Assembly (NCBI GenBank): GCA_965228475.1 | Contig: OZ245817.1 | Coordinates: 704,001 to 768,000, forward strand | Direction of reading: 5' to 3' | From: Myxococcota bacterium | GTDB lineage: Bacteria > Myxococcota_A > UBA9160 > JAFDDA01 | Length of the DNA: 64,000 nt | Part shown: piece by piece, positions 15,278 to 54,765 of the stretch | Layout: each line of letters starts with the position of its first letter | How positions within the stretch are numbered: the first letter of the stretch is position 1 | Notes under the pieces: generated by a model | The model's database searches: none | Told to the model about the DNA's origin: nothing | The model's input: only the letters and a program-made list of their open reading frames with translations | Translations under genes and position numbers: made by a program

Positions 15278-15793
15278 TCACTCCGGCGGGGGCGGGTCCG
15301 CGATTGCTCGCCGCAGGTAGAGGTCGCCGTCCCTTCGCTCGTACGGGCGGAAGCCGTGTCGCTGGTAGAACGCGACGACCTCGCTCCAGGTCTCGGTGGT
15401 CTCGAGCATGGCCGTCCGAAAGCCGCGGCGGTGAGCGACGCCGAGGAGGTGGTCGAGCATCCGGGAGCCCAGCCCCTGGCGCCGCAGCCCTCGGGCGACC
15501 GACATGCGGTGGATCTGGACGGTCTCGGACGATACGGGAAGGAATGCGCCGGTGCCGACGAGGGCTTCGCCCTCGAAGGCGCAGGCGAAGTAGCCGGCGG
15601 CGTAGCTCCGGGCGATTTCCCGGAGGTCGGGGTTCAGGCTCTCGTCGATCGAGCCCCAGTGCTCGCCAAGCCCTTCGAGCACGAGCGCGCGCGCGGCAGC
15701 CTAATCGGCTGCCGCGAACGCTCGGAACGTGATCGGGGAGTCGGCCGGCGTCGCTGCGCCCCGCTCAGGCGCGGCGCCGACGGCGCAGGGCAT
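15278..15793 (-). pseudogene. GNAT N-acetyltransferase interrupted by an in-frame TAG near its N terminus
   Basis: ITFRAFAAAD*AAARALVLEGLGEHWG...RMSVARGLRRQGLG...AFYQRHGF; TAG at 15703-15701. A shorter product could start at GTG 15682. The 5' boundary is uncertain. Confidence 0.65.
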
Positions 15794-40021: not shown

Positions 40022-40061
40022 CTTTCGATGGGTCCAGAGCGCTTTCGATGGGTCCAGAGCG
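40022..40061. repeat. Perfect 20-bp tandem repeat in the thioredoxin 5' leader
   Basis: ctttcgatgggtccagagcg x2. Confidence 0.92.
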
Positions 40062-42021: not shown

Positions 42022-43479
42022 TCAGTCCCGGCCCGGCAGCGTGATGCCGAGCTCGACGATCTTCTTGCGCAGCGTGTTGCGGTTGATTCCGAGCAGGGCC
42101 GCGGCGCGGATCTGGTTGCCTCCGGTGCGCTCGAGGGCCGCCGCGATGAGCGGGCGCTCGACGCTCTCGACGAGGCGCCGGTGCACGTCGCTCGTCCCTT
42201 CGGGCGCTTCGAGCGCCGCATCGAGGGCCTCGCCGATGAGGTCGTTCATCGAGCCCGGCTCCTCCGCCTCGACGACCGGCGCGTCGAGGAAGCCGAAGTC
42301 GTCCGGGGAGAGCACCTCCCCCGAGGCGAGCACGAGCGCGCGCTTCACGGCGTTCTCGAGCTCGCGCACGTTTCCCGGCCACGGGTGGTGGGCCAGGTGT
42401 TCGAGGGCCGCCTCGGACAGGAAGCGCGGCGCGCCCACGAGCTCCTCCGCGTAGAGGGTGGTGAAGTGCTCGGCGAGGCCGCGGACGTCGTCCTGGCGCT
42501 CGCGCAGGGCGGGCAGGTGGATCGGAACGATGCGCAGCCGGTAGAGGAGGTCTTCGCGGAAGCGTCCCTCCCGGACCATCTGGTCGAGGTCGCGGTGAGT
42601 CGCCGCGACGACGCGCACGTCGACGCGGTCCGCGCGCCGGCCGCCCACCGACGTGACCTCGCCGTTCTGGAGTACGCGCAGGAGCTTGGCCTGGAGGTCG
42701 ATGGCCATGTCGCCGATCTCGTCGAGGAGCAGCGTGCCGCCCGATGCCTCGCGAAAGCGTCCGGGCCGGGCATCGACGGCGCCCGTGAAGGCGCCGCGTT
42801 CGTGGCCGAAGAGTTCGCTCTCGAGCAGCTCGCGCGGGATGGCCGCCGTGTTCACCGCGACGAAGCGCTCGCCGGCCCGGTCGCTCGCTTCGTGGATGGC
42901 GCGGGCGACGCGCTCCTTGCCCGTGCCCGTTTCGCCCGTCACGAGCACCGGGATGTCGCTGGCCGCGACCTTGCCCACGGTCTTGAACACCTCGAGCATG
43001 GCGTTGCAGCGCCCGATCAGCCGGTCGGTCACGGGGACGGAGCCGGCCTCGCGCCGCAGCAACCGCACCTCGCGCTCGAGGTCGCGGTTGCGCAGGGCCT
43101 TCGCGACGAGGAGGCTCGTTTCGGAGAGCGCGAACGGCTTGCGCAGGTAGTCGAGGGCGCCGAGCTTCATCGCCTCCATCGTGTTGTCGAAGGTGCTCTC
43201 GGCCGTCATCACGACGATCGCGGTCTGGCTGCCGAGCGTGCGCACGCGCTCGAGCACCTCGAGTCCCGTTGCGCCCGGCATGCGGATGTCGAGGAAGGCG
43301 ACGTCGAAGTCCTGGCCCGCGAGCGCTTCGAAGGCGGCCTCGCCGTCGCTCACGGTCACGACCTCGTGGCCTTCGTCCGCCAGCCACTCCTGCATGTTCT
43401 CGAGGATCGAGGCTTCGTCGTCCGCGACGAGGACGCGGGCGCGCTCTCCGGGCGGGCTTTGCGTTCCGGGATCACTCAT
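42022..43479 (-). CDS. ntrC: Sigma-54-dependent response regulator, NtrC-like
   Basis: REC (VADDE, LDIRMP), GETGTGKE, ESELFGHERGAFTGA, WPGNVRELEN, Fis HTH GGNQIRAAALLGINRNTLRKK. Confidence 0.85.
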   Translation of the reverse strand: MSDPGTQSPPGERARVLVADDEASILENMQEWLADEGHEVVTVSDGEAAFEALAGQDFDVAFLDIRMPGATGLEVLERVRTLGSQTAIVVMTAESTFDNTMEAMKLGALDYLRKPFALSETSLLVAKALRNRDLEREVRLLRREAGSVPVTDRLIGRCNAMLEVFKTVGKVAASDIPVLVTGETGTGKERVARAIHEASDRAGERFVAVNTAAIPRELLESELFGHERGAFTGAVDARPGRFREASGGTLLLDEIGDMAIDLQAKLLRVLQNGEVTSVGGRRADRVDVRVVAATHRDLDQMVREGRFREDLLYRLRIVPIHLPALRERQDDVRGLAEHFTTLYAEELVGAPRFLSEAALEHLAHHPWPGNVRELENAVKRALVLASGEVLSPDDFGFLDAPVVEAEEPGSMNDLIGEALDAALEAPEGTSDVHRRLVESVERPLIAAALERTGGNQIRAAALLGINRNTLRKKIVELGITLPGRD

Positions 43480-43561
43480 GGTCTTGCTCCGGCGAGCCAG
43501 GGCGTCGTTCGCTCACTCATAATCTTGCTCCGGCGAGCCAGGGCGTCGTTCGCTCGCTCAT
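43472..43561 (-). repeat. 41-bp tandem repeat (2.2 copies) encoding two chained 14-aa mini-ORFs between ntrB and ntrC (MIRU-like)
   Basis: ORF1 43561-43517 MSERTTPWLAGARL*, ORF2 43520-43476 MSERTTPWLAGARP*; ATGA overlaps at all three junctions; GGAG 7 nt before each downstream ATG. Confidence 0.9.
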
Positions 43562-44664
43562 GTGGGTTCTCCGGCGGTTCGCAGGGGGAGGTGCACCCGG
43601 GCGCGCGTGCCCTTGCCGGGCTCGCCCTCGAGGGCGAGGCGCCCACCGTGGCCCGCGACCCAGTGCTGGGCGATCGCCAGGCCGAGGCCGGTGCCGGCCG
43701 CGCGCGTGGTGAAGAAGGGTTCGGTGATGCGGTCGCGCAGGTCGTCCGGAATCCCGGGCCCGCTGTCGCGGATGGAGATCTCGACGGCGGGGCCGCGCGA
43801 CCGCTCGCCGGTGGCGAGCCGCAGCGCGAGGTCGATGCGCGTGCGGATCTCGAGGCGCGCGTTGCCCTGGGGTTCGCCCTCGTTCATCGCCTGGAGCGCG
43901 TTGCGCACGAGGTTGTGGAAGATCTGGGCGAGGCGGTCCCGGTCCGCCATCAGCTCGGGGATCGAGGGGTCGTAGAGCCGGACGATCTCGACGCCCTCCG
44001 AGAGCGGATCCAGGTCGTGGAGGTCGAGCACGTCGTCGAGCACGCGGTGGAGGTTCACGGCCCTCGGGCGCAGGCGTTCGTCGCGGGCGAGCTCCATGAA
44101 GTCGTCGAGCAGCGCGCTGATGCGGTCCGTCTCGCGCATCACGAGCTCGGCGGTCTTCTTGGCCCGCGGGTCGTCCGAGCGCCGGGCCAGGAGTTCACCG
44201 GCGCCGCGAATCCCGCCGAGCGGGTTCTTCACCTCGTGGGCGATGCCCGCGGCGATGCGTCCGAAGGAAGTCATGCGGTGGCGCTCGGATTCCGCGTCGA
44301 GCAGCTCCCGCTGGATGCTCCGGTCCCGGATCTCGAGGACCACGCCGTCGCCGCGCTCCTCGGCGTCCCGGAACGGCGAGACCGCGATCTCGACGAGCCG
44401 GTTGCCCGAGCCGGTCGCGTCGCCGACCCGCGGCTCGAGCAGGATCTCGTTCTCGACGAGGCCGCGGCCCTCGGCGAGGACCGTGCGCACGTAGCGGGAG
44501 AGCTCGCGGCCGAGCACCTGCTCGACCGGCCGCCGCCGCGCCGTCTCGGCCGAGGTCATGAGCAGCCGGCAGGCGGCGGTGTTCATCTCCCGCACCGTCC
44601 CGCCGGCGTCGATCACCACGACGCCAGAGAGCAGCGCGTCGATCACGAGAGCCAGGTTCTGCAA
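43558..44664 (-). CDS. ntrB: PAS histidine kinase, NtrB/GlnL-like
   Basis: AHEVKNPLGGIRGA, YDPSIPE, NLVRNA, DSGPG, PFFTT, GTGLGL; TTG start after GAGGGG. Confidence 0.83.
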   Translation of the reverse strand: MQNLALVIDALLSGVVVIDAGGTVREMNTAACRLLMTSAETARRRPVEQVLGRELSRYVRTVLAEGRGLVENEILLEPRVGDATGSGNRLVEIAVSPFRDAEERGDGVVLEIRDRSIQRELLDAESERHRMTSFGRIAAGIAHEVKNPLGGIRGAGELLARRSDDPRAKKTAELVMRETDRISALLDDFMELARDERLRPRAVNLHRVLDDVLDLHDLDPLSEGVEIVRLYDPSIPELMADRDRLAQIFHNLVRNALQAMNEGEPQGNARLEIRTRIDLALRLATGERSRGPAVEISIRDSGPGIPDDLRDRITEPFFTTRAAGTGLGLAIAQHWVAGHGGRLALEGEPGKGTRARVHLPLRTAGEPT

Positions 44665-44822: not shown

Positions 44823-46076
44823 ATGAGGGAAGGGCTCAGCGTCGAAGAGGCCCGCCGTTTCGTGCTCGACGCGGCCGAGCCGCTCGGAGCGGAGACGGTG
44901 CCCGCCGCGGAAGCCCTCGGCCGGGTGCTCGCCGAGCCGGTGCGCTCCGGACGGACCCTCCCCCCGGAAGACAACTCCGCCATGGACGGATACGCCGTGC
45001 GCGCGGCGGACGTGGCGGCCCCCCCGGCGGAACTGCCGGTCGTCTACGAGGTGCCCGCCGGCGGGCACGCGCCGCGCCCCCTGGCTCCCGGCGAGGCGGC
45101 CCGCATCTTCACCGGCGCGCCCGTTCCGCCCGGGTCGGACGCCGTCGTCCGCCAGGAGGACACCGAGCGCACGGGGGATCGCGTCCGCATCGACGTCGGC
45201 GTGCCGGCCGGGGAGAACGTGCGCCGCGCGGGCGAGGACGTCGCGGCGGGGGACGAGGTCTTCGTCGCCGGCGAGCGCCTGCGCCCGGCGCATCTCGGGA
45301 TGATCGCCTCCCTCGGCCGCACCCAGCTGGCCGTGCATCGGCGGCCCCGGGTGGCGCTGCTCTCGGGCGGCGACGAGCTGGTCGAACCGGACGGCGACGT
45401 CACCGGCGGCAAGATCGTCTCCTCGAACTCCTACACGCTGGCCGCCCAGTGCCGCGAGATCGGCGCCGAGCCGCGCTACCTCGGGATCGCCCGCGACGAG
45501 CCCGCGGACATCGAGCGCCGCCTGCGCGCCGGCCTCGCCTGCGACGCCCTCGTGAGCTCCGCGGGCGTCTCGGTCGGCGACCGCGACCACGTGCGCAGCG
45601 TGCTCGAGGCGCTCGGCTGCAAGCTCGAGTTCTGGGGCGTGCGCGTGAAGCCCGGCTACCCCTTCGTCTTCGGCCGCTTCGCCGACGGCCGCGGCCCGCT
45701 GGTCTTCGGCCTTCCCGGCAATCCGGTCTCCGCGATGGTGACCTTCGAGCTGCTCGTCCGGCCGGTGCTGTTGCGTCTCGCAGGCTGGAGCGCCCTTGAC
45801 CGGCCGGTCCTCGACGTCGTCCTCGGCGAGACGCTCACCAAGAAGGCCGGCCGCGCGCACTACGTCCGCGTGCGTCTCGAGCGCCGCGAAGGCCGCGTCG
45901 TCGCGCGGACCACGGGGAACCAGAGCTCGGGGGTGCTCCGCTCGATGGCCCGCGCCCACGGCCTGCTCGTCTTCCCGGAAACGGCGACGCGCCTGGCCGA
46001 AGGCGACTGCGCCCGGGTGCTCCTGCTCGACGACGACTTCCTCGGTGGCGCACCGGACGATGCGGGCGCTCCGTGA
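44823..46076 (+). CDS. moeA: Molybdopterin molybdenumtransferase
   Basis: NSAMDGYAV, RIFTGAP, GDEL, SAGVSVG, KPG, LPGNPVS. Confidence 0.95.
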   Translation: MREGLSVEEARRFVLDAAEPLGAETVPAAEALGRVLAEPVRSGRTLPPEDNSAMDGYAVRAADVAAPPAELPVVYEVPAGGHAPRPLAPGEAARIFTGAPVPPGSDAVVRQEDTERTGDRVRIDVGVPAGENVRRAGEDVAAGDEVFVAGERLRPAHLGMIASLGRTQLAVHRRPRVALLSGGDELVEPDGDVTGGKIVSSNSYTLAAQCREIGAEPRYLGIARDEPADIERRLRAGLACDALVSSAGVSVGDRDHVRSVLEALGCKLEFWGVRVKPGYPFVFGRFADGRGPLVFGLPGNPVSAMVTFELLVRPVLLRLAGWSALDRPVLDVVLGETLTKKAGRAHYVRVRLERREGRVVARTTGNQSSGVLRSMARAHGLLVFPETATRLAEGDCARVLLLDDDFLGGAPDDAGAP

Positions 46077-46099
46077 GCGCGCCGCGCGATCCTCGGTGA
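46073..46099 (+). other. 8-aa bridging mini-ORF (MSAPRDPR*) linking moeA to mobA
   Basis: GTGA at 46073-46076 (moeA stop) and GTGA at 46096-46099 (mobA start); both followed by GCGC; 23-nt period. Confidence 0.5.
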
Positions 46100-46722
46100 G
46101 CGCTTCGCGGTTCCCGGTCCGCGCTTCGCTCGACGGCGCCGTCCTCCTGGGCGGTGCTTCCTCGCGCATGGGCACCGACAAGGCCACGCTCGAGTTCGCG
46201 GGCCTGCCGAGCGTGGAGCACGTCGCGCGGGCGGTCGCGAGGGTCTGCGAGACGCTCTACCTCGTCGGCGGCGCGCCGCCCGAGACCACCCGCGGCCATC
46301 GCATCCCCGACCCCGAAGGGCCCCAGTGCGCCCTGCGCGGCCTGGTCGCCGCGCTCGACGCTTCGCGAGCCGAGTACGTGCTGGTCCTCGCGACGGATCT
46401 CCCGCTCGTGACGCCGGACCTGTTGCGTGCGCTGGCCGTCGCGCCCGAGGCGGCGGCGGTGGTGCCGCGCGACGAAGGCGGAATCCACCCCCTGTGTGCG
46501 CGCTACCGGCGGGAGCCCGTGCTCTCCGCGGCCGCAGCGCGGCTGGCGTCGGGAAGCCTCGCCCTGCGCGGCGTGCTCGAGGACGTCGGGTTCCATCCCC
46601 TCGAAGGCGACGCTCTGCGCGCGGCGGACCCCGAAGGGCGGGCGCTGTGGAACGTGAATCGGCCGGAGGAGGCGAGGAAGGCGGCCGGCTGGCTCGAGGA
46701 GCGCGCGCAGCGCTCCGGGTGA
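46096..46722 (+). CDS. mobA: Molybdenum cofactor guanylyltransferase
   Basis: LLGGASSRMGTDKA, LATDLP, HPLCARY, NVN.PE; adjacent to moeA. Confidence 0.88.
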   Translation: MSASRFPVRASLDGAVLLGGASSRMGTDKATLEFAGLPSVEHVARAVARVCETLYLVGGAPPETTRGHRIPDPEGPQCALRGLVAALDASRAEYVLVLATDLPLVTPDLLRALAVAPEAAAVVPRDEGGIHPLCARYRREPVLSAAAARLASGSLALRGVLEDVGFHPLEGDALRAADPEGRALWNVNRPEEARKAAGWLEERAQRSG

Positions 46723-47880: not shown

Positions 47881-49137
47881 CTAGCGACGGCGGCGGAAGA
47901 GCGCTCGGATCGCGTCGGCGTCGACGGCGTGTGCATCGCCCGCGAAGCGCGCGCGCTCGAGCGACGCGAGGGCGTCTTCGCATGCGGCCGGCGTCGCGTC
48001 GGGGAAAGCCTCTAGCGAAGGCTGGGTCCCATGCCCGTCCGCGCCGCGGCGAAACCCCGGCGGCGCGGCGTCGACGATGCTGCGGACGGCCCGTTCGAGC
48101 GCCGCCAGGCGGGCTTCCGGGCTCTCGGCGCTGTCCGCCTCACGCAGGGCGGCGCGAACCGTTCGCAGCGTGCCGTCACGAGCTCGTCGCGCTCTCACGG
48201 CGCGCACGGCCAGCACGGCGACGAACCCGAATGCGAGAACGACGGCGGCCATGCCCGGCCCGATCGCGCGGGCCGCGCCCGATGGGGAGGCGGCGGCGGG
48301 TTCCTGCGCCGACGCGGCGGGGGCTCCTCCCTGGGGAGCGGGCTCGCGTGCGCCGGGGCCCTCGTGGACGCGGACCTCCACTGGCTCGCTTTCGGCTACG
48401 GCATACCGTTCCGTCTCAGGGTCGAACCACGGGATGCGGAGCGCCGGGATGCGCAGGAGTCCGGGCGCCCGCGGGACGAGGTCGAAGCCCTGGGTGCGGA
48501 CGGTCCGGAGGGCCTGGGTCCCCTGGAAGGTGAGGCGCGCCGGCCGCGGAAAGACCTCGGCCCGGGCGGGGTCGAGGGGGAGCTCCACCCGCGCGAGCGA
48601 GAGGTCCGCCCTTCCTTCGATGAACACGTGGAGCCGGGTGCTTTCCCCGAACCGGAGTTCCGGAGCGACCCGAACCGAAACCGCCGTCGGTCCGACGACG
48701 CCGGTGAACCCTTCGGGCCGTCCCGCCGCCGGGGGCGGGCGGGCCTCGAAGACGGCGGCCGGAAGCACCGCCTCCTGCTCGCCGCAGCGAATGCCGGCCG
48801 CCGGGAGCGTGAGCTCGCCCGCGCGGACCGGGAAGAGCCACACGCGCTCCTCGGTGCGGAGCGTCGAGCCCGAGGGGGACTCGACGCGCGACGTGGTCGA
48901 TCGTGCCTCGAGCCGCTCGACGCGGAAGCCCGGGTAGCGGCGCGCCACGGTCCAGCGAAAGTCCGCCTCCGCCGGACGCACGGTGACCGTGCGCTGGAGG
49001 ATCGGCTGTCCGACGAAGCCCGCCGAGGGTTCGAGGCGGGCGGAGACGAGGCACTCCGCTCCCGCGGAAGGGCCGGGAAGCACCAAGACGCTCGCAAGTA
49101 GCAGCGCACGGAGGACGAGCCTTCGACGCGCGGTCAC
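47881..49137 (-). CDS. BatD-like protein
   Basis: Signal peptide, Ig-like repeats (FPVRAGELTLPA, VPRAPGLLRIPALRIPWFDP), FTGVVG, TM helix; last gene of the Bat operon. Confidence 0.75.
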   Translation of the reverse strand: MTARRRLVLRALLLASVLVLPGPSAGAECLVSARLEPSAGFVGQPILQRTVTVRPAEADFRWTVARRYPGFRVERLEARSTTSRVESPSGSTLRTEERVWLFPVRAGELTLPAAGIRCGEQEAVLPAAVFEARPPPAAGRPEGFTGVVGPTAVSVRVAPELRFGESTRLHVFIEGRADLSLARVELPLDPARAEVFPRPARLTFQGTQALRTVRTQGFDLVPRAPGLLRIPALRIPWFDPETERYAVAESEPVEVRVHEGPGAREPAPQGGAPAASAQEPAAASPSGAARAIGPGMAAVVLAFGFVAVLAVRAVRARRARDGTLRTVRAALREADSAESPEARLAALERAVRSIVDAAPPGFRRGADGHGTQPSLEAFPDATPAACEDALASLERARFAGDAHAVDADAIRALFRRRR

Positions 49138-50735
49138 CAGGGGGAACCCTCGGCGCGCGGGTCGTTCTCGCGAAGCCCGCGCAGCGCGCGCGTCGGGTCG
49201 TCGCGCGTGCGTTCGAGGAAACGCGCGACCTCTTCGGGGGTGAGTTCGGGCGGCGGGGGAAGGCGGGCACGCTCGGGTTCGGGGGTCTCGTCGCTCGAAT
49301 CGTCGGGCGGCTCGGGGGACGAAGCGTCGGCTTCGGAAGGGCTCGGCTGCGGCGGAGGCGGCGGCGGATTCGCTTCGAGCGCCTGGAGCGTCCACTCGAG
49401 ATTGAAGCGCGCCTCGAGATCCTCGGGCGCGAGCGCCACGGCCTCGAAGAAGGCGTCGCGCGCGGCCTCGAAGCGGCCCGCTTCCAGCGCGGCCACCCCG
49501 GCGCCGTAGTACGCTCGCGCGCTTCGCTCGGCTCGGGTACCGAGCAGGGCCGCGGCGCGGAAGGCGCGTTCGGCTTCTAGCCAATGCCCGGCGTCCGCCA
49601 GGGCCAACCCCCGCTCGAAGGCGCGCTGGTCGCGGGGGGCCGAGCCCGGAGCTGCGGCGACGAGACCCAGCGCGACGAGGATCCCGGCGCGCCCCGCGCT
49701 CGGGATGCGCAGCGTCGGCCAGGAAAACGTTCCGAACGATCCGGCGCGGCCGGGCCGGCCCGCGCCGCCCGGGCGGCGGAGCGCATCGAAGAGCAGGAGC
49801 GCCAGGGCGAGGGCCGCCACGGGCACCGTTCGGACGGCGGGGACGCGCCGCTCGATGAAGCCGGTCTCGGCCGCGAGGGCGGCGTCGCGGCGGACGGCCG
49901 CGAGCAGGGCGGCTTCGTCGACGGCGCCGAAGCGGTCCGTCGCGAGCAGCTCGCCGCCGGTGGCCGAGGCGAGGGCGAAGAGCCGCTCGGTGTCGAGCCG
50001 CGTTCGGACGGGGCGGCCGCGCCGGTCGCGCAGTTCGAGCCCCTGGTTCGGGATGGCGGCGCCCTCTTCGCTTCCGAAGCCGACCGCGACGACCCGCACA
50101 CCGTCGCGCAGGAGTTCGGCCCGTCCGAGGTCGGGCGTGGCGTCGGCGTCTTCGCCGTCCGAGAGGACGACGAGCACGCGGGGCCGCTCACTGCCGGGGT
50201 CGAAGGCTTCGAGGGCGCGGGCGACGCCGGCGCCGAGGCGCGAGGCGCCGGGCCGCACGAGGGTCGTGTCGAGGGCGGGAAGCAATCCGGCGAGGGCGGC
50301 GTGGTCGTGACTGAGCGGCGCGACCAGCACGCCGCGCGCCGCGAAGGCGGCCAGTGCGGCGCGGTCGCCCGGCGCGAGGCCGGCGAGCAGTCCCTCGGCC
50401 GCGCGGCGCGCGCGGTCGAGCCGGCTCGGCGGGACGTCGCGCGCGTCCATGCTGCGCGAGACGTCGAGCAACACGACGACGTCGAGGCCCGAGGCCGAGA
50501 CCCGTTCGACGCGCGTACCCGAGCGCGGCCCGAGGGCGGCGATCGCCACCGCGGCGAGCGCGGCAAGCAGGAGGAGTTCTCTCGCTCCGCCGGCGCCTCC
50601 GCGGGCCGAACTCCCGAACAGGAGCCGACGCCTCCGGGCGGCGCGCACGCGGGCCATCGCGACGGCGGCGGCGAGACCGAGCCACGCGAGCGCGAGCGCC
50701 GGGATCCACTCGGGACGGACGAAGAAGGCGGTCAC
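49134..50735 (-). CDS. vWA + TPR protein (BatB/BatC-like fusion)
   Basis: MIDAS DVSRSM, LSDGED; C-terminal TPR (AYYGAG...ARFNLE). Confidence 0.82.
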   Translation of the reverse strand: MTAFFVRPEWIPALALAWLGLAAAVAMARVRAARRRRLLFGSSARGGAGGARELLLLAALAAVAIAALGPRSGTRVERVSASGLDVVVLLDVSRSMDARDVPPSRLDRARRAAEGLLAGLAPGDRAALAAFAARGVLVAPLSHDHAALAGLLPALDTTLVRPGASRLGAGVARALEAFDPGSERPRVLVVLSDGEDADATPDLGRAELLRDGVRVVAVGFGSEEGAAIPNQGLELRDRRGRPVRTRLDTERLFALASATGGELLATDRFGAVDEAALLAAVRRDAALAAETGFIERRVPAVRTVPVAALALALLLFDALRRPGGAGRPGRAGSFGTFSWPTLRIPSAGRAGILVALGLVAAAPGSAPRDQRAFERGLALADAGHWLEAERAFRAAALLGTRAERSARAYYGAGVAALEAGRFEAARDAFFEAVALAPEDLEARFNLEWTLQALEANPPPPPPQPSPSEADASSPEPPDDSSDETPEPERARLPPPPELTPEEVARFLERTRDDPTRALRGLRENDPRAEGSPW

Positions 50736-50785
50736 GGGAGGCACTCCCAAGCGCTCACGAGAGGCACTCCCCCGGGCTCACGAGA
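50732..50785 (-). repeat. 23-bp tandem repeat encoding two chained 8-aa mini-ORFs between batA and batB
   Basis: ORF A 50781-50755 MSPGECLS*, ORF B 50758-50732 MSAWECLP*; GTGA overlaps at all three junctions; GGGAG-tgc-CTC(T/C)C hairpin before each GTG. Confidence 0.88.
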
Positions 50786-51803
50786 TCACCCGCCGCAGGA
50801 CGGAGAACCCGAGCAGCTCGAGCGCGATGAAGCATCCGGCCGCGGCCAGGAAGGGTTCCGGGCGGGGCCGCTCGAGGCGCTCCCCCCGCGCCGGCCGCTC
50901 GACGCGTTCGAGGGCGTCGATGGCCTCGTAGACGGCGCCGAGATCCGCGCCGCTGCGCGCCCGGAAGAACCGGCCCCCGGTGTGCTGCGCGATCGCCTCG
51001 AGCGTTTCCGCGTCGAGGTCGTGGCGGCCGAAGCGCAGCCCGCGCGCGGCCGCACCCTCGGCGGCGCCCATCGCCACGCGGCCCTCCCCGCCGATGCCGA
51101 CGGTGTGGACCCGCACCTGGCTCGCGCGCGCGAGCTCCATCGCCACGTCGACGGGGATCTCGCCCGTGGTGTTGCGGCCATCGGTCAAGAGCACGACGAC
51201 ACGGCCTTCGGGGGACGCGCCGCCGCGTGCGGTGACGCGCCGGACGGCGAGCGCGAGCGCCTCGCCGAGGGCCGTCTCGTTCCCGGCGACGCCCGGCCGC
51301 ACGCGTTCGAGGGCGGCCGCGAGCAGGGCGCCGTCCTGGGTCAGGGGACACTGCGTGAACGCGTCGTCGCCGAAGACCACGAGCCCGACCCGGTCGCCCG
51401 CTTCGGCGCGGGTCCGGGCGAAGCGCGCGACGGTGCGCTGGGCGAGGGCCAGGCGGGTTCCCGGTTCGCCATCGATCTGCGCGTCGAGGGCCTGCATGCT
51501 CCCGGACGCGTCCACGACGAGCAGGAGGTCGAGCCCGAGCTCCGGGGGTGGCGCCGAGGGGCGCAGGCTCGTCGGACCGGCGAAGACGAGGGCCAGGGCC
51601 ACGAGCGCGCCGGCGCGGAGGAAGGCGCGAACGAACCGCTCGAGGTCGCGGGTGCGAAGACCAGCGGTGCGCGCCTCGGCGAAGGCCGGCCAGCTCGCGC
51701 CGCGCGCGCGCCGCCGGAGCAGGGCGGCCGCCGCGAGGAGGCCGGCCCCGCACAGCAGGAACCACTCGGGATGCAGGAAGGTGAAGTCCGCGGGCACGGT
51801 CAC
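50778..51803 (-). CDS. vWA domain protein (BatA-like)
   Basis: FLHPEW N terminus, DASGSM MIDAS, DRVGLVVF, TALGEAL, LLTDG, GGRFFRA. Confidence 0.88.
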   Translation of the reverse strand: MTVPADFTFLHPEWFLLCGAGLLAAAALLRRRARGASWPAFAEARTAGLRTRDLERFVRAFLRAGALVALALVFAGPTSLRPSAPPPELGLDLLLVVDASGSMQALDAQIDGEPGTRLALAQRTVARFARTRAEAGDRVGLVVFGDDAFTQCPLTQDGALLAAALERVRPGVAGNETALGEALALAVRRVTARGGASPEGRVVVLLTDGRNTTGEIPVDVAMELARASQVRVHTVGIGGEGRVAMGAAEGAAARGLRFGRHDLDAETLEAIAQHTGGRFFRARSGADLGAVYEAIDALERVERPARGERLERPRPEPFLAAAGCFIALELLGFSVLRRVIS

Positions 51804-52756
51804 GTCTCCCGCGGCCGCACCGAGCGGGCGACGAAGGCGAGGGCGTCCTGGAACCAGGCGCGCAGGGCTTCCCGCGAAGCCGGCTCGTCGACGCCGCCGG
51901 GGAAGCGCAGGGCGTCGAGCCGCCGCAGCAGCGCGACGAACTCGGGCCAGTGCGAGAGCAGGCGGCCCGGCGGCCGCCGCGCGGCGATCTCTTCGGTCGT
52001 GAGGCTTTCGAGAGGGCGTGCGCTGCGGATGGCGGCGTAGCGCCGGAGGGCCAGCGCCGCCGCGTCGGCGGCTTCACGCGGATCCGCCTCGGCTTCGGCC
52101 AGCGCCCGGCGCAGATCCCGCTCGGCTCGCTCCCACGCGGGCGTCGTATCTTCCGCTTCGCCGGCACCCGCGGCCCGGGCCCGGCGTCTCCGCAGGAAGC
52201 GCCAGCCCGCCAGCGCGATCAGGGTGGCGAGCGAGCCGGCGGCGGCCGAGCCCCAGGCGGGGAGCCGGCCGCGCGGCGCGGATTCCGGCGCGTCGCGGAG
52301 TCCGAAGGGCACGAGCTGGTCCGGCAGTGCGTCGGAAGCCGAGACGACGACGAAGGGACGCGCCTCGAGGCGGAGCGTGCTCGTTTCGCCCCCGGGCCCT
52401 TCGACGGCGATCTCGCGCGCCGGCCATTCGTATTCTCCCGGGACGTCGCGCACGCGGGCACGGACCTGCGTCGTGTGGGTCCAGCGCCCGCCGTCGCGTT
52501 GCACCGGTCGGCGCTCGGCGTCGAGCAGCCAGAGCGGCGGGATCTCCTTCGGGAACTCGATCGGCGGAAGGTGGTGATCCGGCGCGGTCACGACGACGAC
52601 GTCGATCTTCACGAGCTCGCCCACGCGCAGGGCCGGCGGCTCGAAGACCACCGCGCCGTGGGTTGCGGACGGAGGCGGCGAGGGCTCGGGCGCTTCGCCG
52701 CAGGAAAGCAGAGCGCATCCAGCGAAGAGCGCGCCGAGCACGGTCCGGGCCCTCAT
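51800..52756 (-). CDS. Bat-operon membrane lipoprotein-like hypothetical protein
   Basis: Lipobox-like LLSC, Ig-like region, TM helix, ALRRY...LTTEE...LRF. Confidence 0.7.
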   Translation of the reverse strand: MRARTVLGALFAGCALLSCGEAPEPSPPPSATHGAVVFEPPALRVGELVKIDVVVVTAPDHHLPPIEFPKEIPPLWLLDAERRPVQRDGGRWTHTTQVRARVRDVPGEYEWPAREIAVEGPGGETSTLRLEARPFVVVSASDALPDQLVPFGLRDAPESAPRGRLPAWGSAAAGSLATLIALAGWRFLRRRRARAAGAGEAEDTTPAWERAERDLRRALAEAEADPREAADAAALALRRYAAIRSARPLESLTTEEIAARRPPGRLLSHWPEFVALLRRLDALRFPGGVDEPASREALRAWFQDALAFVARSVRPRET

Positions 52757-53724
52757 GCCGCGCCCTCTCCGCGCGCACTCCGCTCGCGAACGAGCGCGAG
52801 CAGGGCGGTCAGCGGGTCCCGGTCGGTTCGCAGCCAGGTGCAGTCCGCCCCGAGGCTCCGCACCCGGCGGGTCACGTCGACGCGGCGCGCGCGCGCCGCG
52901 GCGGCATAGGCTTCGCGGACGCGCCGTCGCCCGGTCTGGAGAACGCCGGAGGGCCCGCCGCCGGCGGCATCGCGCAGCCGCACCGGCCCCGCCGCCGGGA
53001 GCGCGAGTTCGCGCGGATCCACGGGGAGGACGGTCACCAGATCCCGGTGCCGTGCGAGGCTCGCGAGGCCGGGGCCGACGCCGCCGCGCGGCGGCAGTGC
53101 GCCGTCGTCGCGCAGGTCCGAGAGCAGGACGAGGATGCCGCGCCGCGCCCGGCGCGCGTGGAGGTGGCGCGCGAGGCCTTCGACGTCCGCCGCGCCGGCG
53201 CAGGCGCTCGCATCGGCGACGGCGGTCTGGATCACCCGCCACGCGTGCCCCTCGCCGCGCCCGGCCGCGAGTTCGCTGCGGACGCCATCGGCGAAGGTCA
53301 CCAGCGCGACGCGATCGCCCGCGTGGGTCGCGGCCGCGGCCAGCAGGGCCGCCGCGTCGGCAGCGGTCTGGGCCTTGCTCCGGCCGGTGGTGCCGAAACC
53401 CATGCCGGCCGAGACGTCGAGCAGCAGCGTCAGGGTCTGGTCGCGTTCTTCGCGGAAGCGCTTCACGTAGGGGTGACCGCGCCGGGCCGTCGCGTTCCAG
53501 TCGAGGCTGCGCACGTCGTCGCCCGGGGTGTAGGGGCGGAGTTCGTCGAACTCGATCCCGGCGCCGCGGAAGGCGCTCGCGTAGCCGCCGGCGTAGAGGC
53601 TCGCCGCCATGCGGCGGCTGCGCAGGGCCAGCACCCGTGCGGCGCGCGCGAGCTCCGGCATCGCGTCCGCCGAGGTCTGCCAACGGTCCCTGGGGTTTCC
53701 GGCTGCGTGCGCGGGGGCGGCCAT
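52753..53724 (-). CDS. DUF58 domain protein
   Basis: GAGIEFDELRPYTPGDDVRSLDWNATAR, VKRFREE, LSD. Confidence 0.92.
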   Translation of the reverse strand: MAAPAHAAGNPRDRWQTSADAMPELARAARVLALRSRRMAASLYAGGYASAFRGAGIEFDELRPYTPGDDVRSLDWNATARRGHPYVKRFREERDQTLTLLLDVSAGMGFGTTGRSKAQTAADAAALLAAAATHAGDRVALVTFADGVRSELAAGRGEGHAWRVIQTAVADASACAGAADVEGLARHLHARRARRGILVLLSDLRDDGALPPRGGVGPGLASLARHRDLVTVLPVDPRELALPAAGPVRLRDAAGGGPSGVLQTGRRRVREAYAAAARARRVDVTRRVRSLGADCTWLRTDRDPLTALLALVRERSARGEGAA

Positions 53725-53734
53725 GGAGGGGCGG

Positions 53735-54727
53735 TCAGGGGCTTTCGACGGCGGCCAGCACCGCGGTCACGACGTCGTCCGCCGTGATGCCGTCGGCCTC
53801 GGCCTCGTAGGACAGGACGAGGCGGTGGCGAAGGACCGCCGGGGCGATGCGCTTCACGTCGTGCGGAGTGACGAAGCGCCGGCCGTCGAGGAGGGCGCGG
53901 CCCTTGGCCGCGCGAACGAGGAAGACGCTCCCGCGCGGGGACGCGCCGAGGGCGACGGCCGCGCCGGCCGGTCGGCCCGCCAGGGTGGCACCGACGGCGT
54001 CGGGCGTCCGCGTCGCGCGCACCAGGCGCACGGCGTAGTCCGCGACGCTCGGCTCGACGTGGACGTCGGCGGCTTCCGCCTGGAGGCGCCGCACGCCCTC
54101 CGCGTCGAGCAGGCTCGCGAGGTCCGGGGCGGCCTCGCCGTCGCGCGCGACGATCCGGGCTTCTTCCTCGGCCTCGGGGTAGCCGACGAGGATCTTCAGC
54201 AGGAACCGGTCGAGCTCGGCTTCGGGGAGCGGGTAGGTGCCTTCGAGTTCGACCGGGTTCTGGGTCGCCATCACGAAGAACGGCGCGGGCAGGGGGATCG
54301 TGCGGTCGCCGATCGTCACCTGGCGCTCTTCCATCGCTTCGAGCAGCGCCGATTGCACCTTGGCCGGCGCGCGGTTGATTTCGTCGGCCAGCAGGACCGG
54401 CGTGAAGATCGGCCCTTCCTGGAGTTCGAAGCGGCCCTGCTCGTGCAGGTAGATCGGCGTGCCGAGCAGGTCGCCGGGCAGGAGATCCGGCGTGAACTGG
54501 ACGCGTCGGAACCCGAGGCCCAGCACCTCGGCCAGGGTACGGACGGCCGTCGTCTTGGCCACGCCCGGGACGCCCTCGACCAGCACGTGGCCGCCGGCGA
54601 GCAGCCCGAGCAGCAGGCCTTCGACCATCTCGTGCTGGCCGACCACGACCCGCGCGACCTCTTCGAGGAGACGTTTGGTCCCGGCCTCGTCGCCGCTCAT
54701 CCGTTCGATGTCGCTCTCGGAATCCAT
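53735..54727 (-). CDS. moxR: MoxR-family AAA+ ATPase
   Basis: EGVPGVAKT, RVQFTPDLLP, LADEINRA, ATQNPVE.EGTYPLPEA.LDRF, GASPRG. Confidence 0.95.
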   Translation of the reverse strand: MDSESDIERMSGDEAGTKRLLEEVARVVVGQHEMVEGLLLGLLAGGHVLVEGVPGVAKTTAVRTLAEVLGLGFRRVQFTPDLLPGDLLGTPIYLHEQGRFELQEGPIFTPVLLADEINRAPAKVQSALLEAMEERQVTIGDRTIPLPAPFFVMATQNPVELEGTYPLPEAELDRFLLKILVGYPEAEEEARIVARDGEAAPDLASLLDAEGVRRLQAEAADVHVEPSVADYAVRLVRATRTPDAVGATLAGRPAGAAVALGASPRGSVFLVRAAKGRALLDGRRFVTPHDVKRIAPAVLRHRLVLSYEAEADGITADDVVTAVLAAVESP

Positions 54728-54765
54728 TCGGCGCCCCTCGGGCCGGGTTCGATCGGAGCCCAGGC

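Follow-up and report, generated by a model that had tools for sequence, protein, structure and literature searches.

How does the spacer between two genes of an operon come to be tiled by open reading frames of only eight codons, and why are such frames kept? The question is raised by the junction between batA and batB, two adjacent genes on the minus strand of a 64,000-nucleotide (nt) stretch of DNA from a Myxococcota bacterium (contig OZ245817.1, positions 704,001 to 768,000; hereafter, the window). The 46 nt that separate the two genes consist of two 23-nt units, each of which is spanned by a short open reading frame (mini-ORF) that overlaps its neighbors on both sides. We consider it likely that these units are locally made duplications of a stop/start overlap, variable in copy number, that were kept because their length, one nucleotide short of a multiple of three (3n-1), preserves the handing-on of ribosomes from batA to batB. 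The evidence comes from the junction itself, from the same junction in related genomes and strains, and from the reading frames of similar duplications at gene ends across the genome.

Anatomy of the batA-batB junction

The 3' end of batA reads CGG GTG ATC TCG TGA. Its stop codon (TGA, 50780-50778) is preceded by a G at 50781, and the resulting GTGA opens the first mini-ORF, which has the sequence GTG AGC CCG GGG GAG TGC CTC TCG TGA. The stop of that mini-ORF lies in a second GTGA opening the second mini-ORF (GTG AGC GCT TGG GAG TGC CTC CCG TGA), the stop of which in turn overlaps the GTG of batB. Three stop/start overlaps were found in series, at 50781-50778, 50758-50755, and 50735-50732, and each is of 4 nt, one of the two overlap lengths (4 nt or 1 nt) that characterize termination-reinitiation coupling. 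Each unit also carries a GGGAG Shine-Dalgarno (SD) motif 8 nt ahead of the downstream GTG. This anatomy had been described in an initial annotation of the window, and we recovered all of it when deriving it again from the sequence. The 3' tail of the 16S rRNA in this genome is canonical, ending ...GGATCACCTCCTTTCT.

The two units differ at four of their 23 positions (unit positions 7, 9, 10, and 22), and both GTGA and GGGAG are untouched. Two occurrences of the 17-mer GGGAGTGCCTCYCGTGA are present in the window, compared with 0.05 expected, and none of 100 shuffles had two or more. A genome-wide search for this motif, which the initial annotation had suggested, returned these two copies alone, with no occurrence beyond the batA-batB junction in the 5.0-Mb genome. 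The 23-nt unit likewise has no other genomic copy at up to three mismatches. No Rfam family, intrinsic terminator, or promoter match (the promoter scan being of the sigma-70 type) was found in the region 50400-51100.

The position of the batB start was assessed from its orthologues. The BatB N-termini of relatives are mostly of the form M-x(5-7)-HPEW, and a start at GTG 50735 would give VTAFFVRPEW, which fits; a coding-score gene caller also placed the start at this codon. These comparisons support GTG 50735, the start first proposed for batB over TTG 50750. TTG 50750, which would add five residues, and GTG 50744 were considered as alternatives and rejected, as neither has an SD at a usable distance and both disagree with the N-termini of the orthologues.

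The same junction in related genomes

A match to batA was found in 38 of the 41 genomes searched, the window's own included. For comparison of the junction, we used 25 loci of the same order (again counting the window's own), in each of which the batA C-terminus and the batB N-terminus were located. In 22 of the 24 relatives the two genes overlap directly, 21 of them by NTGA (N being A, G, or T) and one by TGATG, and the batB frame opens at that point. Because direct overlap is found in 22 of the 24, the comparison points to a direct 4-nt overlap as the ancestral state and to the 46 nt as an insertion. The tail of BatA in the window (...LRRVIS*) equals the ...RRxLP* of the orthologues in length, and a genome of the same genus (G001), with a BatA that is 65% identical, has the direct overlap.

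The other two relatives have independent chains of mini-ORFs at batA-batB. One of these, in a different family (L017, G021:C653), has a 38-nt unit with a 13-codon mini-ORF ending ..LARRLP*, and this unit is a copy of the local batA tail, matching it at 21 of 23 nt. The other (L019, G023:C73) has an 11-nt unit with a four-codon mini-ORF, and its genus-mate G008 overlaps directly. Variation in the length of orthologous junctions, which the initial annotation had raised as possibly indifferent to frame, was therefore confined to one class, as all three kinds of insert at batA-batB (23 nt twice, 38 nt, and 11 nt) are of 3n-1 length. Ten related loci were also found among JGI metagenome contigs, with a best identity of 43%, and none was useful at the junction.

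Read in the frame of the mini-ORFs, the two units of the window end ..ECLS* and ..ECLP*, with codons like those that encode the BatA tails (..RRLP* or ..RCLP*) in relatives. It is because of this resemblance that we read the units as copies of the batA 3' end with its overlap. Local tandem duplication of that end together with the ancestral GTGA is the best-supported origin for the units, rather than a purpose-built cassette. Such an event would have involved a 23-nt piece, made up of the last ~19 nt of batA with its SD and the ancestral GTGA, which was tandemly duplicated to give the 46-nt insert.

Copy number differs between near-identical strains

Contigs of four public runs (X2 to X5) were compared over positions 50500-51000. 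The X2 contig (13.9 kb, word depth 62) covers the whole 501-nt stretch with 0 differences and has two units. On the evidence of this contig, from a run that is possibly the source of the window's own DNA, the two-unit sequence is not an assembly slip. A 198-nt contig of X3 covers 50604-50801, also with two units and 0 differences. The remaining two runs come from two further studies and are ~98-99% identical to the window sequence. The 754-nt contig of X4 has 8 other letters over the stretch and the 243-nt contig of X5 has 2 other letters over 266 nt, and in both, 23 letters are missing at 50738, leaving one unit. Because X4 and X5 lack exactly 23 letters, the batA-batB locus is a variable number tandem repeat (VNTR), with one versus two units between near-identical strains.

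The unit that remains in these strains has substitutions of its own, 50772 C>T and 50775 G>C in X4 and 50766 A>G in X5. When the strains and the differences between units are taken together, five distinct unit positions vary, and none of them is among the nine positions of GGGAG and GTGA (chance 0.06). This is only suggestive that the SD and overlap positions have been spared by variation. The mini-ORF peptides are not conserved.

Mini-ORF relays and their reading frames across the genome

The genome has 5,006,157 bases (70.5% G+C), in which 4297 genes were called with our own codon-score caller. A TGA stop preceded by A, G, or T, and so overlapping an NTG, was found in 1102 genes. Most of these (700) lead straight to the next called gene, while 138 reach it through mini-ORFs chained by 4-nt overlaps, an arrangement that we refer to as a relay; 121 have one mini-ORF, 14 have two, and three have three. 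The others lack a downstream gene (164), enter a long ORF that was not called (99), or meet the end of the sequence (1). There were 96 chains that end exactly on an independently called start, with one, two, and three mini-ORFs in 86, 9, and 1 of them, respectively. The batA-batB junction is consequently one of about a hundred mini-ORF-tiled junctions in this genome. The census places five relays in the window: at batA-batB, ntrB-ntrC, moeA-mobA, and near positions 15281 and 20930.

Recognizable repeats, with at least 60% identity over the 20 nt flanking successive overlaps, were present in 27 of the 96 chains, compared with 1.8% of unrelated pairs. Their periods include 23 (ten times), 41, 35, 20, 32, and others. 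When 107 relay units were compared, strong matches (at least 22 nt) were all between adjacent units of one locus, and the few matches between loci were weak (12-21 nt, E 3e-4 to 8e-3). Upstream SD motifs were found for 56 of the 96 final starts, 9 of the 11 internal mini-ORF starts, and 31 of the 96 first mini-ORF starts; the background is 43% for all called starts and 10% for random in-gene NTGA.

To analyze frames without start calls, we sought the 14-mer ending at each stop 6-120 nt downstream, with up to two mismatches, and found it to recur in 70 genes. At A/G/T-TGA stops, the distances gave remainders modulo 3 of 2, 0, and 1 in 17, 4, and 0 cases, whereas all other stops gave 20, 16, and 13. 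A 3n-1 period was present in 17/21 of the former versus 20/49 of the latter (Fisher odds ratio 6.2, p = 0.0035; binomial p = 1e-5 for the excess at A/G/T-TGA stops). The same was seen with start calls: for pairs in which the stop and the start that follows both lie in NTGA, 92 distances were 3n-1 versus 17 that were 3n+1, compared with 144 versus 123 for other stops (odds ratio 4.6, p = 1e-8). Counted per stop, 3n-1 copies were found at 17/1102 NTGA stops versus 20/3195 others (odds ratio 2.5, p = 0.007).

Because the other stops are spread over all frames and the NTGA stops are divided 17/4/0, the duplication process is frame-blind, while retention at overlap junctions is frame-selective. Frame-preserving copies have been preferentially kept, and this lends indirect support to termination-reinitiation at the starts that were copied. 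The bias fits what would be expected if ribosomes initiate at a copied start and an out-of-frame run across the real start is harmful. In effect, the genome offers a natural experiment, in which duplications strike gene ends in all frames and, at stop/start overlaps, almost only 3n-1 copies survive. The support that this gives to restarting of ribosomes at overlapping starts, and to a cost of run-on, is population-genetic and indirect.

Two genomes of the same order, each sampled over 400 kb, showed the same direction. The NTGA-to-NTGA distances gave remainders modulo 3 of 0, 1, and 2 in 1, 0, and 4 cases in one (G040) and in 3, 2, and 11 cases in the other (G022). Stop 14-mers recurred once in one of the two samples and not at all in the other, compared with 5.6 predicted per 400 kb (P = 0.025 and 0.004). 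Because both samples fall below this prediction, young short duplications seem to be unusually abundant in the window's genome, while the geometry of the relays seems to be more widespread.

A proposed passage of ribosomes from batA to batB

We infer that the mini-ORFs are translated and that they relay ribosomes. A ribosome ending batA would restart on the overlapping GUG, read eight codons, halt at the next UGA/GUG, and repeat this once before finally restarting at the GUG of batB, the restarts being aided by GGGAG 8 nt upstream. Each copied GTG would open a frame that closes on the TGA of the next GTGA, and the 3n-1 length of the unit means that the same geometry would be rebuilt with every copy. 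The peptides of the mini-ORFs would be filler. The copies would be tolerated in that stop-to-start coupling is kept and out-of-frame run-on into batB is prevented, and they may mildly tune the BatA:BatB ratio. In Huber et al. 2023 (PMC10666635), an untranslated gap of ~20 nt nearly abolished reinitiation in reporters, and for this reason a 46-nt insert would be expected to uncouple batB unless it was tiled by ORFs.

Several observations weigh against this account. The present batA tail of the window (..RRVIS*) and the units are weakly alike, with 8 of the 15 nt before TGA shared by eye. The two units are only 83% identical, though strains that are ~98-99% identical differ in copy number, and recent gain, loss, or conversion may all fit the history of the units. 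The one-unit contigs of X4 and X5 have a word depth of ~2, with both runs in agreement. The census depends on our own gene caller, which is crude and uncertain in its placement of starts, and the 3n class in the count with start calls (42) was possibly under-counted, as an in-frame upstream NTG can be absorbed into the downstream gene. Finally, with an SD ahead of every start, batB could arise mainly by de novo initiation, with the relay being irrelevant.

If the hand-on of ribosomes is correct, duplication provides a route by which a 4-nt overlap can be lost without uncoupling the genes. It would also call for caution in annotation, as short "intergenic" spacers such as this one would be tiled by putatively translated filler ORFs and not by regulatory RNA; for batB, the start was set to GTG 50735. 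As copy number differs between near-identical strains, the loci are also candidate strain markers in metagenomes.

A more far-reaching extension, which we regard as doubtful, is that junction repeats act as heritable and reversible rheostats, in which the gain or loss of 3n-1 units by slippage shifts reinitiation yield and, with it, the BatA:BatB ratio. If true, a subunit ratio could be changed with both proteins untouched, and selection would actively keep units at operon junctions. This would account for the 2.5-fold excess of 3n-1 copies at NTGA stops as well as for the differences in copy number between strains, and, across high-GC phyla, would represent a general mechanism of the contingency-locus type by which operon stoichiometry is set.

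Hairpins, chance, and mobile repeats

The initial annotation had viewed the units as a designed gate, in which GGGAG pairs with CUCYC before the next start and the ribosome finishing each mini-ORF melts the hairpin, making batB obligatorily dependent on batA. The stem itself is real in a limited sense: a 5-bp stem with a UGC loop was present in the minimum free energy (MFE) structure of both isolated 27-nt units (-8.1 and -7.0 kcal/mol), pairing is preserved where the units differ by T/C (G-U versus G-C), and the X5 substitution at 50766 sits in the loop. Yet the isolated units showed no excess stability over dinucleotide shuffles (z -1.16 and +0.44), of which 25/200 for unit 2 and 127/200 for unit 1 folded at least as well. 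In longer contexts (z -0.44 for 71 nt and +1.29 for 131 nt), the MFE structure pairs unit 1 with unit 2 instead of forming the mini-hairpins. A stem of 5 bp is also weak relative to ribosome binding, which counts against a gate.

Nor was there a trend genome-wide: for 34 nt at the final start, the mean z of 96 relays was +0.17, versus +0.04 in a sample of 150 direct overlaps (Mann-Whitney p = 0.33), and most orthologous junctions, judged by eye, are without a comparable self-complementary pair. Neither stability beyond composition nor conservation, the marks of a structure that sequesters a ribosome binding site, was found in the folds of batA-batB, in the 96 relays, or in the orthologues examined by eye. 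The hairpin is in our view incidental and unlikely to matter. Obligatory coupling as the purpose of the units also does not stand, given that the units appear to be local duplications and that near-identical strains carry one or two of them.

A simpler possibility is that the duplication is real and the mini-ORFs are without effect, with batB initiated de novo and the 3n-1 length a matter of one-in-three luck. The SD of batB is good, with 8-nt spacing, frequent short tandem duplications affect gene ends of all kinds in the genome (the 70 genes above), and unit number varies freely between strains. Luck, however, leaves unexplained why NTGA stops have 17/21 copies at 3n-1 and 0/21 at 3n+1 when other stops are uniform, as well as the 92 versus 17 split genome-wide, the 3n-1 length of all three independent batA-batB variants, and the 2.5 times more frequent keeping of 3n-1 duplications at NTGA stops. 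We consider this explanation quite improbable.

Comparison with known systems

Termination-reinitiation coupling at 4-nt overlaps was reportedly treated by Huber et al. in 2019 (PMC6728339). As at the ATGA/GTGA sites in PMC12548453, each step of the chain at batA-batB is a -4 overlap of the canonical kind, preceded by an SD. In its ancestral form the junction appears to be such a site as well, as seen in the 21 relatives with NTGA and the one with TGATG. Unlike published cases, which involve single junctions between real genes, three overlaps occur here in series with eight-codon filler ORFs between them. The bat mini-ORFs also resemble the short "delivery" upstream ORFs (uORFs) coupled to a downstream gene that are described in PMC12548453, citing Shell et al. 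2015, in that they are non-conserved and their sole plausible role would be the handing of a ribosome to the next start. In contrast to those uORFs, they are intercistronic and repeated, and were probably born by duplication of a junction.

The closest known system to the bat units is that of the interspersed repetitive units of mycobacteria (MIRUs), from which they are set apart in that they arise at their own locus and are not scattered over the genome. The source work on the MIRUs of the senX3-regX3 intergenic region is said to be that of Supply et al. in 1997. MIRUs are described as tandem units between cistrons, with an ORF that is coupled at -4 nt (PMC12548453), and as ~40-100 bp in length, numbering ~40-50 per genome and overlapping the adjacent genes at their ends (PMC3184786). 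In PMC4213456, the senX3-regX3 spacer has three 77-bp units in H37Rv versus two 77-bp units and one 53-bp unit in CDC1551, and shows promoter activity. By our arithmetic, these lengths of 77 and 53 bp are 3n-1, as are the bat units. Like MIRUs, the bat units are in tandem between co-transcribed genes, with a short ORF per unit coupled at -4 nt and a number that varies between strains. The two-component operon ntrB-ntrC of the window carries a repeat of the same kind, as does senX3-regX3, another two-component operon.

With respect to features that define MIRUs, the batA-batB junction has tandem units between co-oriented genes, ORF overlaps of -4 nt, and VNTR behavior (from X4 and X5, at depth ~2), and it lacks both a dispersed mobile family at tens of loci and a unit of ~40-100 bp. 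MIRUs are dispersed, thought to be mobile, and actinobacterial, whereas each locus here has its own sequence copied, as we read it, from its own gene ends, and the host belongs to the Myxococcota. That the bat units are a MIRU-like mobile element, a dispersed short repeat inserting at start codons with its own coupled ORF, is scarcely credible: the architecture (PMC12548453 and PMC3184786) and the strain differences in unit number are indeed alike, but there are no related copies elsewhere in the genome, units from different loci are not strongly similar, the bat unit is like the batA tail beside it just as the independent unit of G021 copies its own, and 23 nt is short of the ~40-100 bp given in PMC3184786. 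Duplication of a local overlap indicates that a MIRU-like layout can arise without a mobile element. A full-text literature search, which did not cover subscription journals, found no paper on local stop/start-overlap duplication as a source of relay mini-ORFs.

Features of the bat locus and other junctions

Pfam matches to co-oriented genes for a MoxR AAA+ ATPase, DUF58, the VWA proteins BatA and BatB, TPR, and BatD identify the locus as a Bat operon. The BatA N-terminal domain in batA scored 5.6e-4, under its Pfam cutoff.

Coordinates of features at the bat locus, as positions of the window
Feature	Positions	Strand	Remarks
MoxR AAA+ ATPase gene	53735-54730	-	Pfam AAA_3 1.3e-62
DUF58 gene	52753-53724	-	Pfam DUF58 1.5e-46
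Unassigned ORF	51800 to ~52650	-	between DUF58 gene and batA
batA (VWA-domain protein, BatA N-terminal region)	50778-51803	-	Pfam VWA 1.6e-18, VWA_2 1.4e-16
GGTGATC in batA tail	50784-50790	-	candidate SD for mini-ORF 1; pairs with GAUCACC of 16S 3' tail
23-nt tandem repeat	50728-50785	-	Tandem Repeats Finder: period 23, 2.5 copies, 85% matches, score 81
Mini-ORF 1 (unit 1)	50755-50781	-	8 codons + stop; GTG overlaps batA TGA, TGA overlaps next GTG
GGGAG SD, unit 1	50767-50771	-	8 nt ahead of GTG 50758
Mini-ORF 2 (unit 2)	50732-50758	-	8 codons + stop; TGA overlaps batB GTG
GGGAG SD, unit 2	50744-50748	-	8 nt ahead of batB GTG 50735
batB (VWA + TPR)	49134-50735	-	start GTG 50735-50733; Pfam VWA_2 1.6e-15, TPR
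batD	47881 to ~49083	-	Pfam BatD 1.7e-6

A parallel between the bat units and the ntrB-ntrC junction had been drawn at the outset, and it is borne out by the 41-nt units and ATGA overlaps observed there. The junction (43476-43561, minus strand) has two such units (Tandem Repeats Finder 43472-43562, 92% matches), each with a 14-codon ORF, and these are ATGA-linked from the ntrB stop at 43560-43558 to the ntrC ATG at 43479. The ntrB tail upstream of the units resembles a third, diverged copy. A further relay, absent from the initial annotation, was found at the moeA-mobA junction (46073-46099, plus strand), with a 23-nt period (Tandem Repeats Finder 46069-46133, 2.9 copies, 75%). An eight-codon ORF is opened by the GTGA around the moeA TGA (46074-46076) and ends on a second GTGA (46096) that is the probable mobA start. 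The two other relays of the window, both on the minus strand between called genes, are not obviously repeat-like: at ~15281 there are two mini-ORFs (48 and 15 nt) and at ~20930 a single 36-nt mini-ORF.

The most striking other relays of the genome are both on the minus strand of C1. At 1341766 there are three consecutive 39-nt mini-ORFs from 35-nt units, the last two of which are near-identical, and at 3172300 there are two 45-nt mini-ORFs from 41-nt units. An example of the very young duplications that are frequent here is a perfect intergenic tandem duplication of 20 nt, in two copies, at 40022-40061 of the window (plus strand; Tandem Repeats Finder 100%). Stop usage in the genome, by our own gene caller, was 2107 TGA, 2054 TAG, and 136 TAA, and the TAG stops were mostly in a CTAG context (1477). 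This share of TAG is high for a genome of 70% G+C; in two sampled relatives it was ~32-37%.

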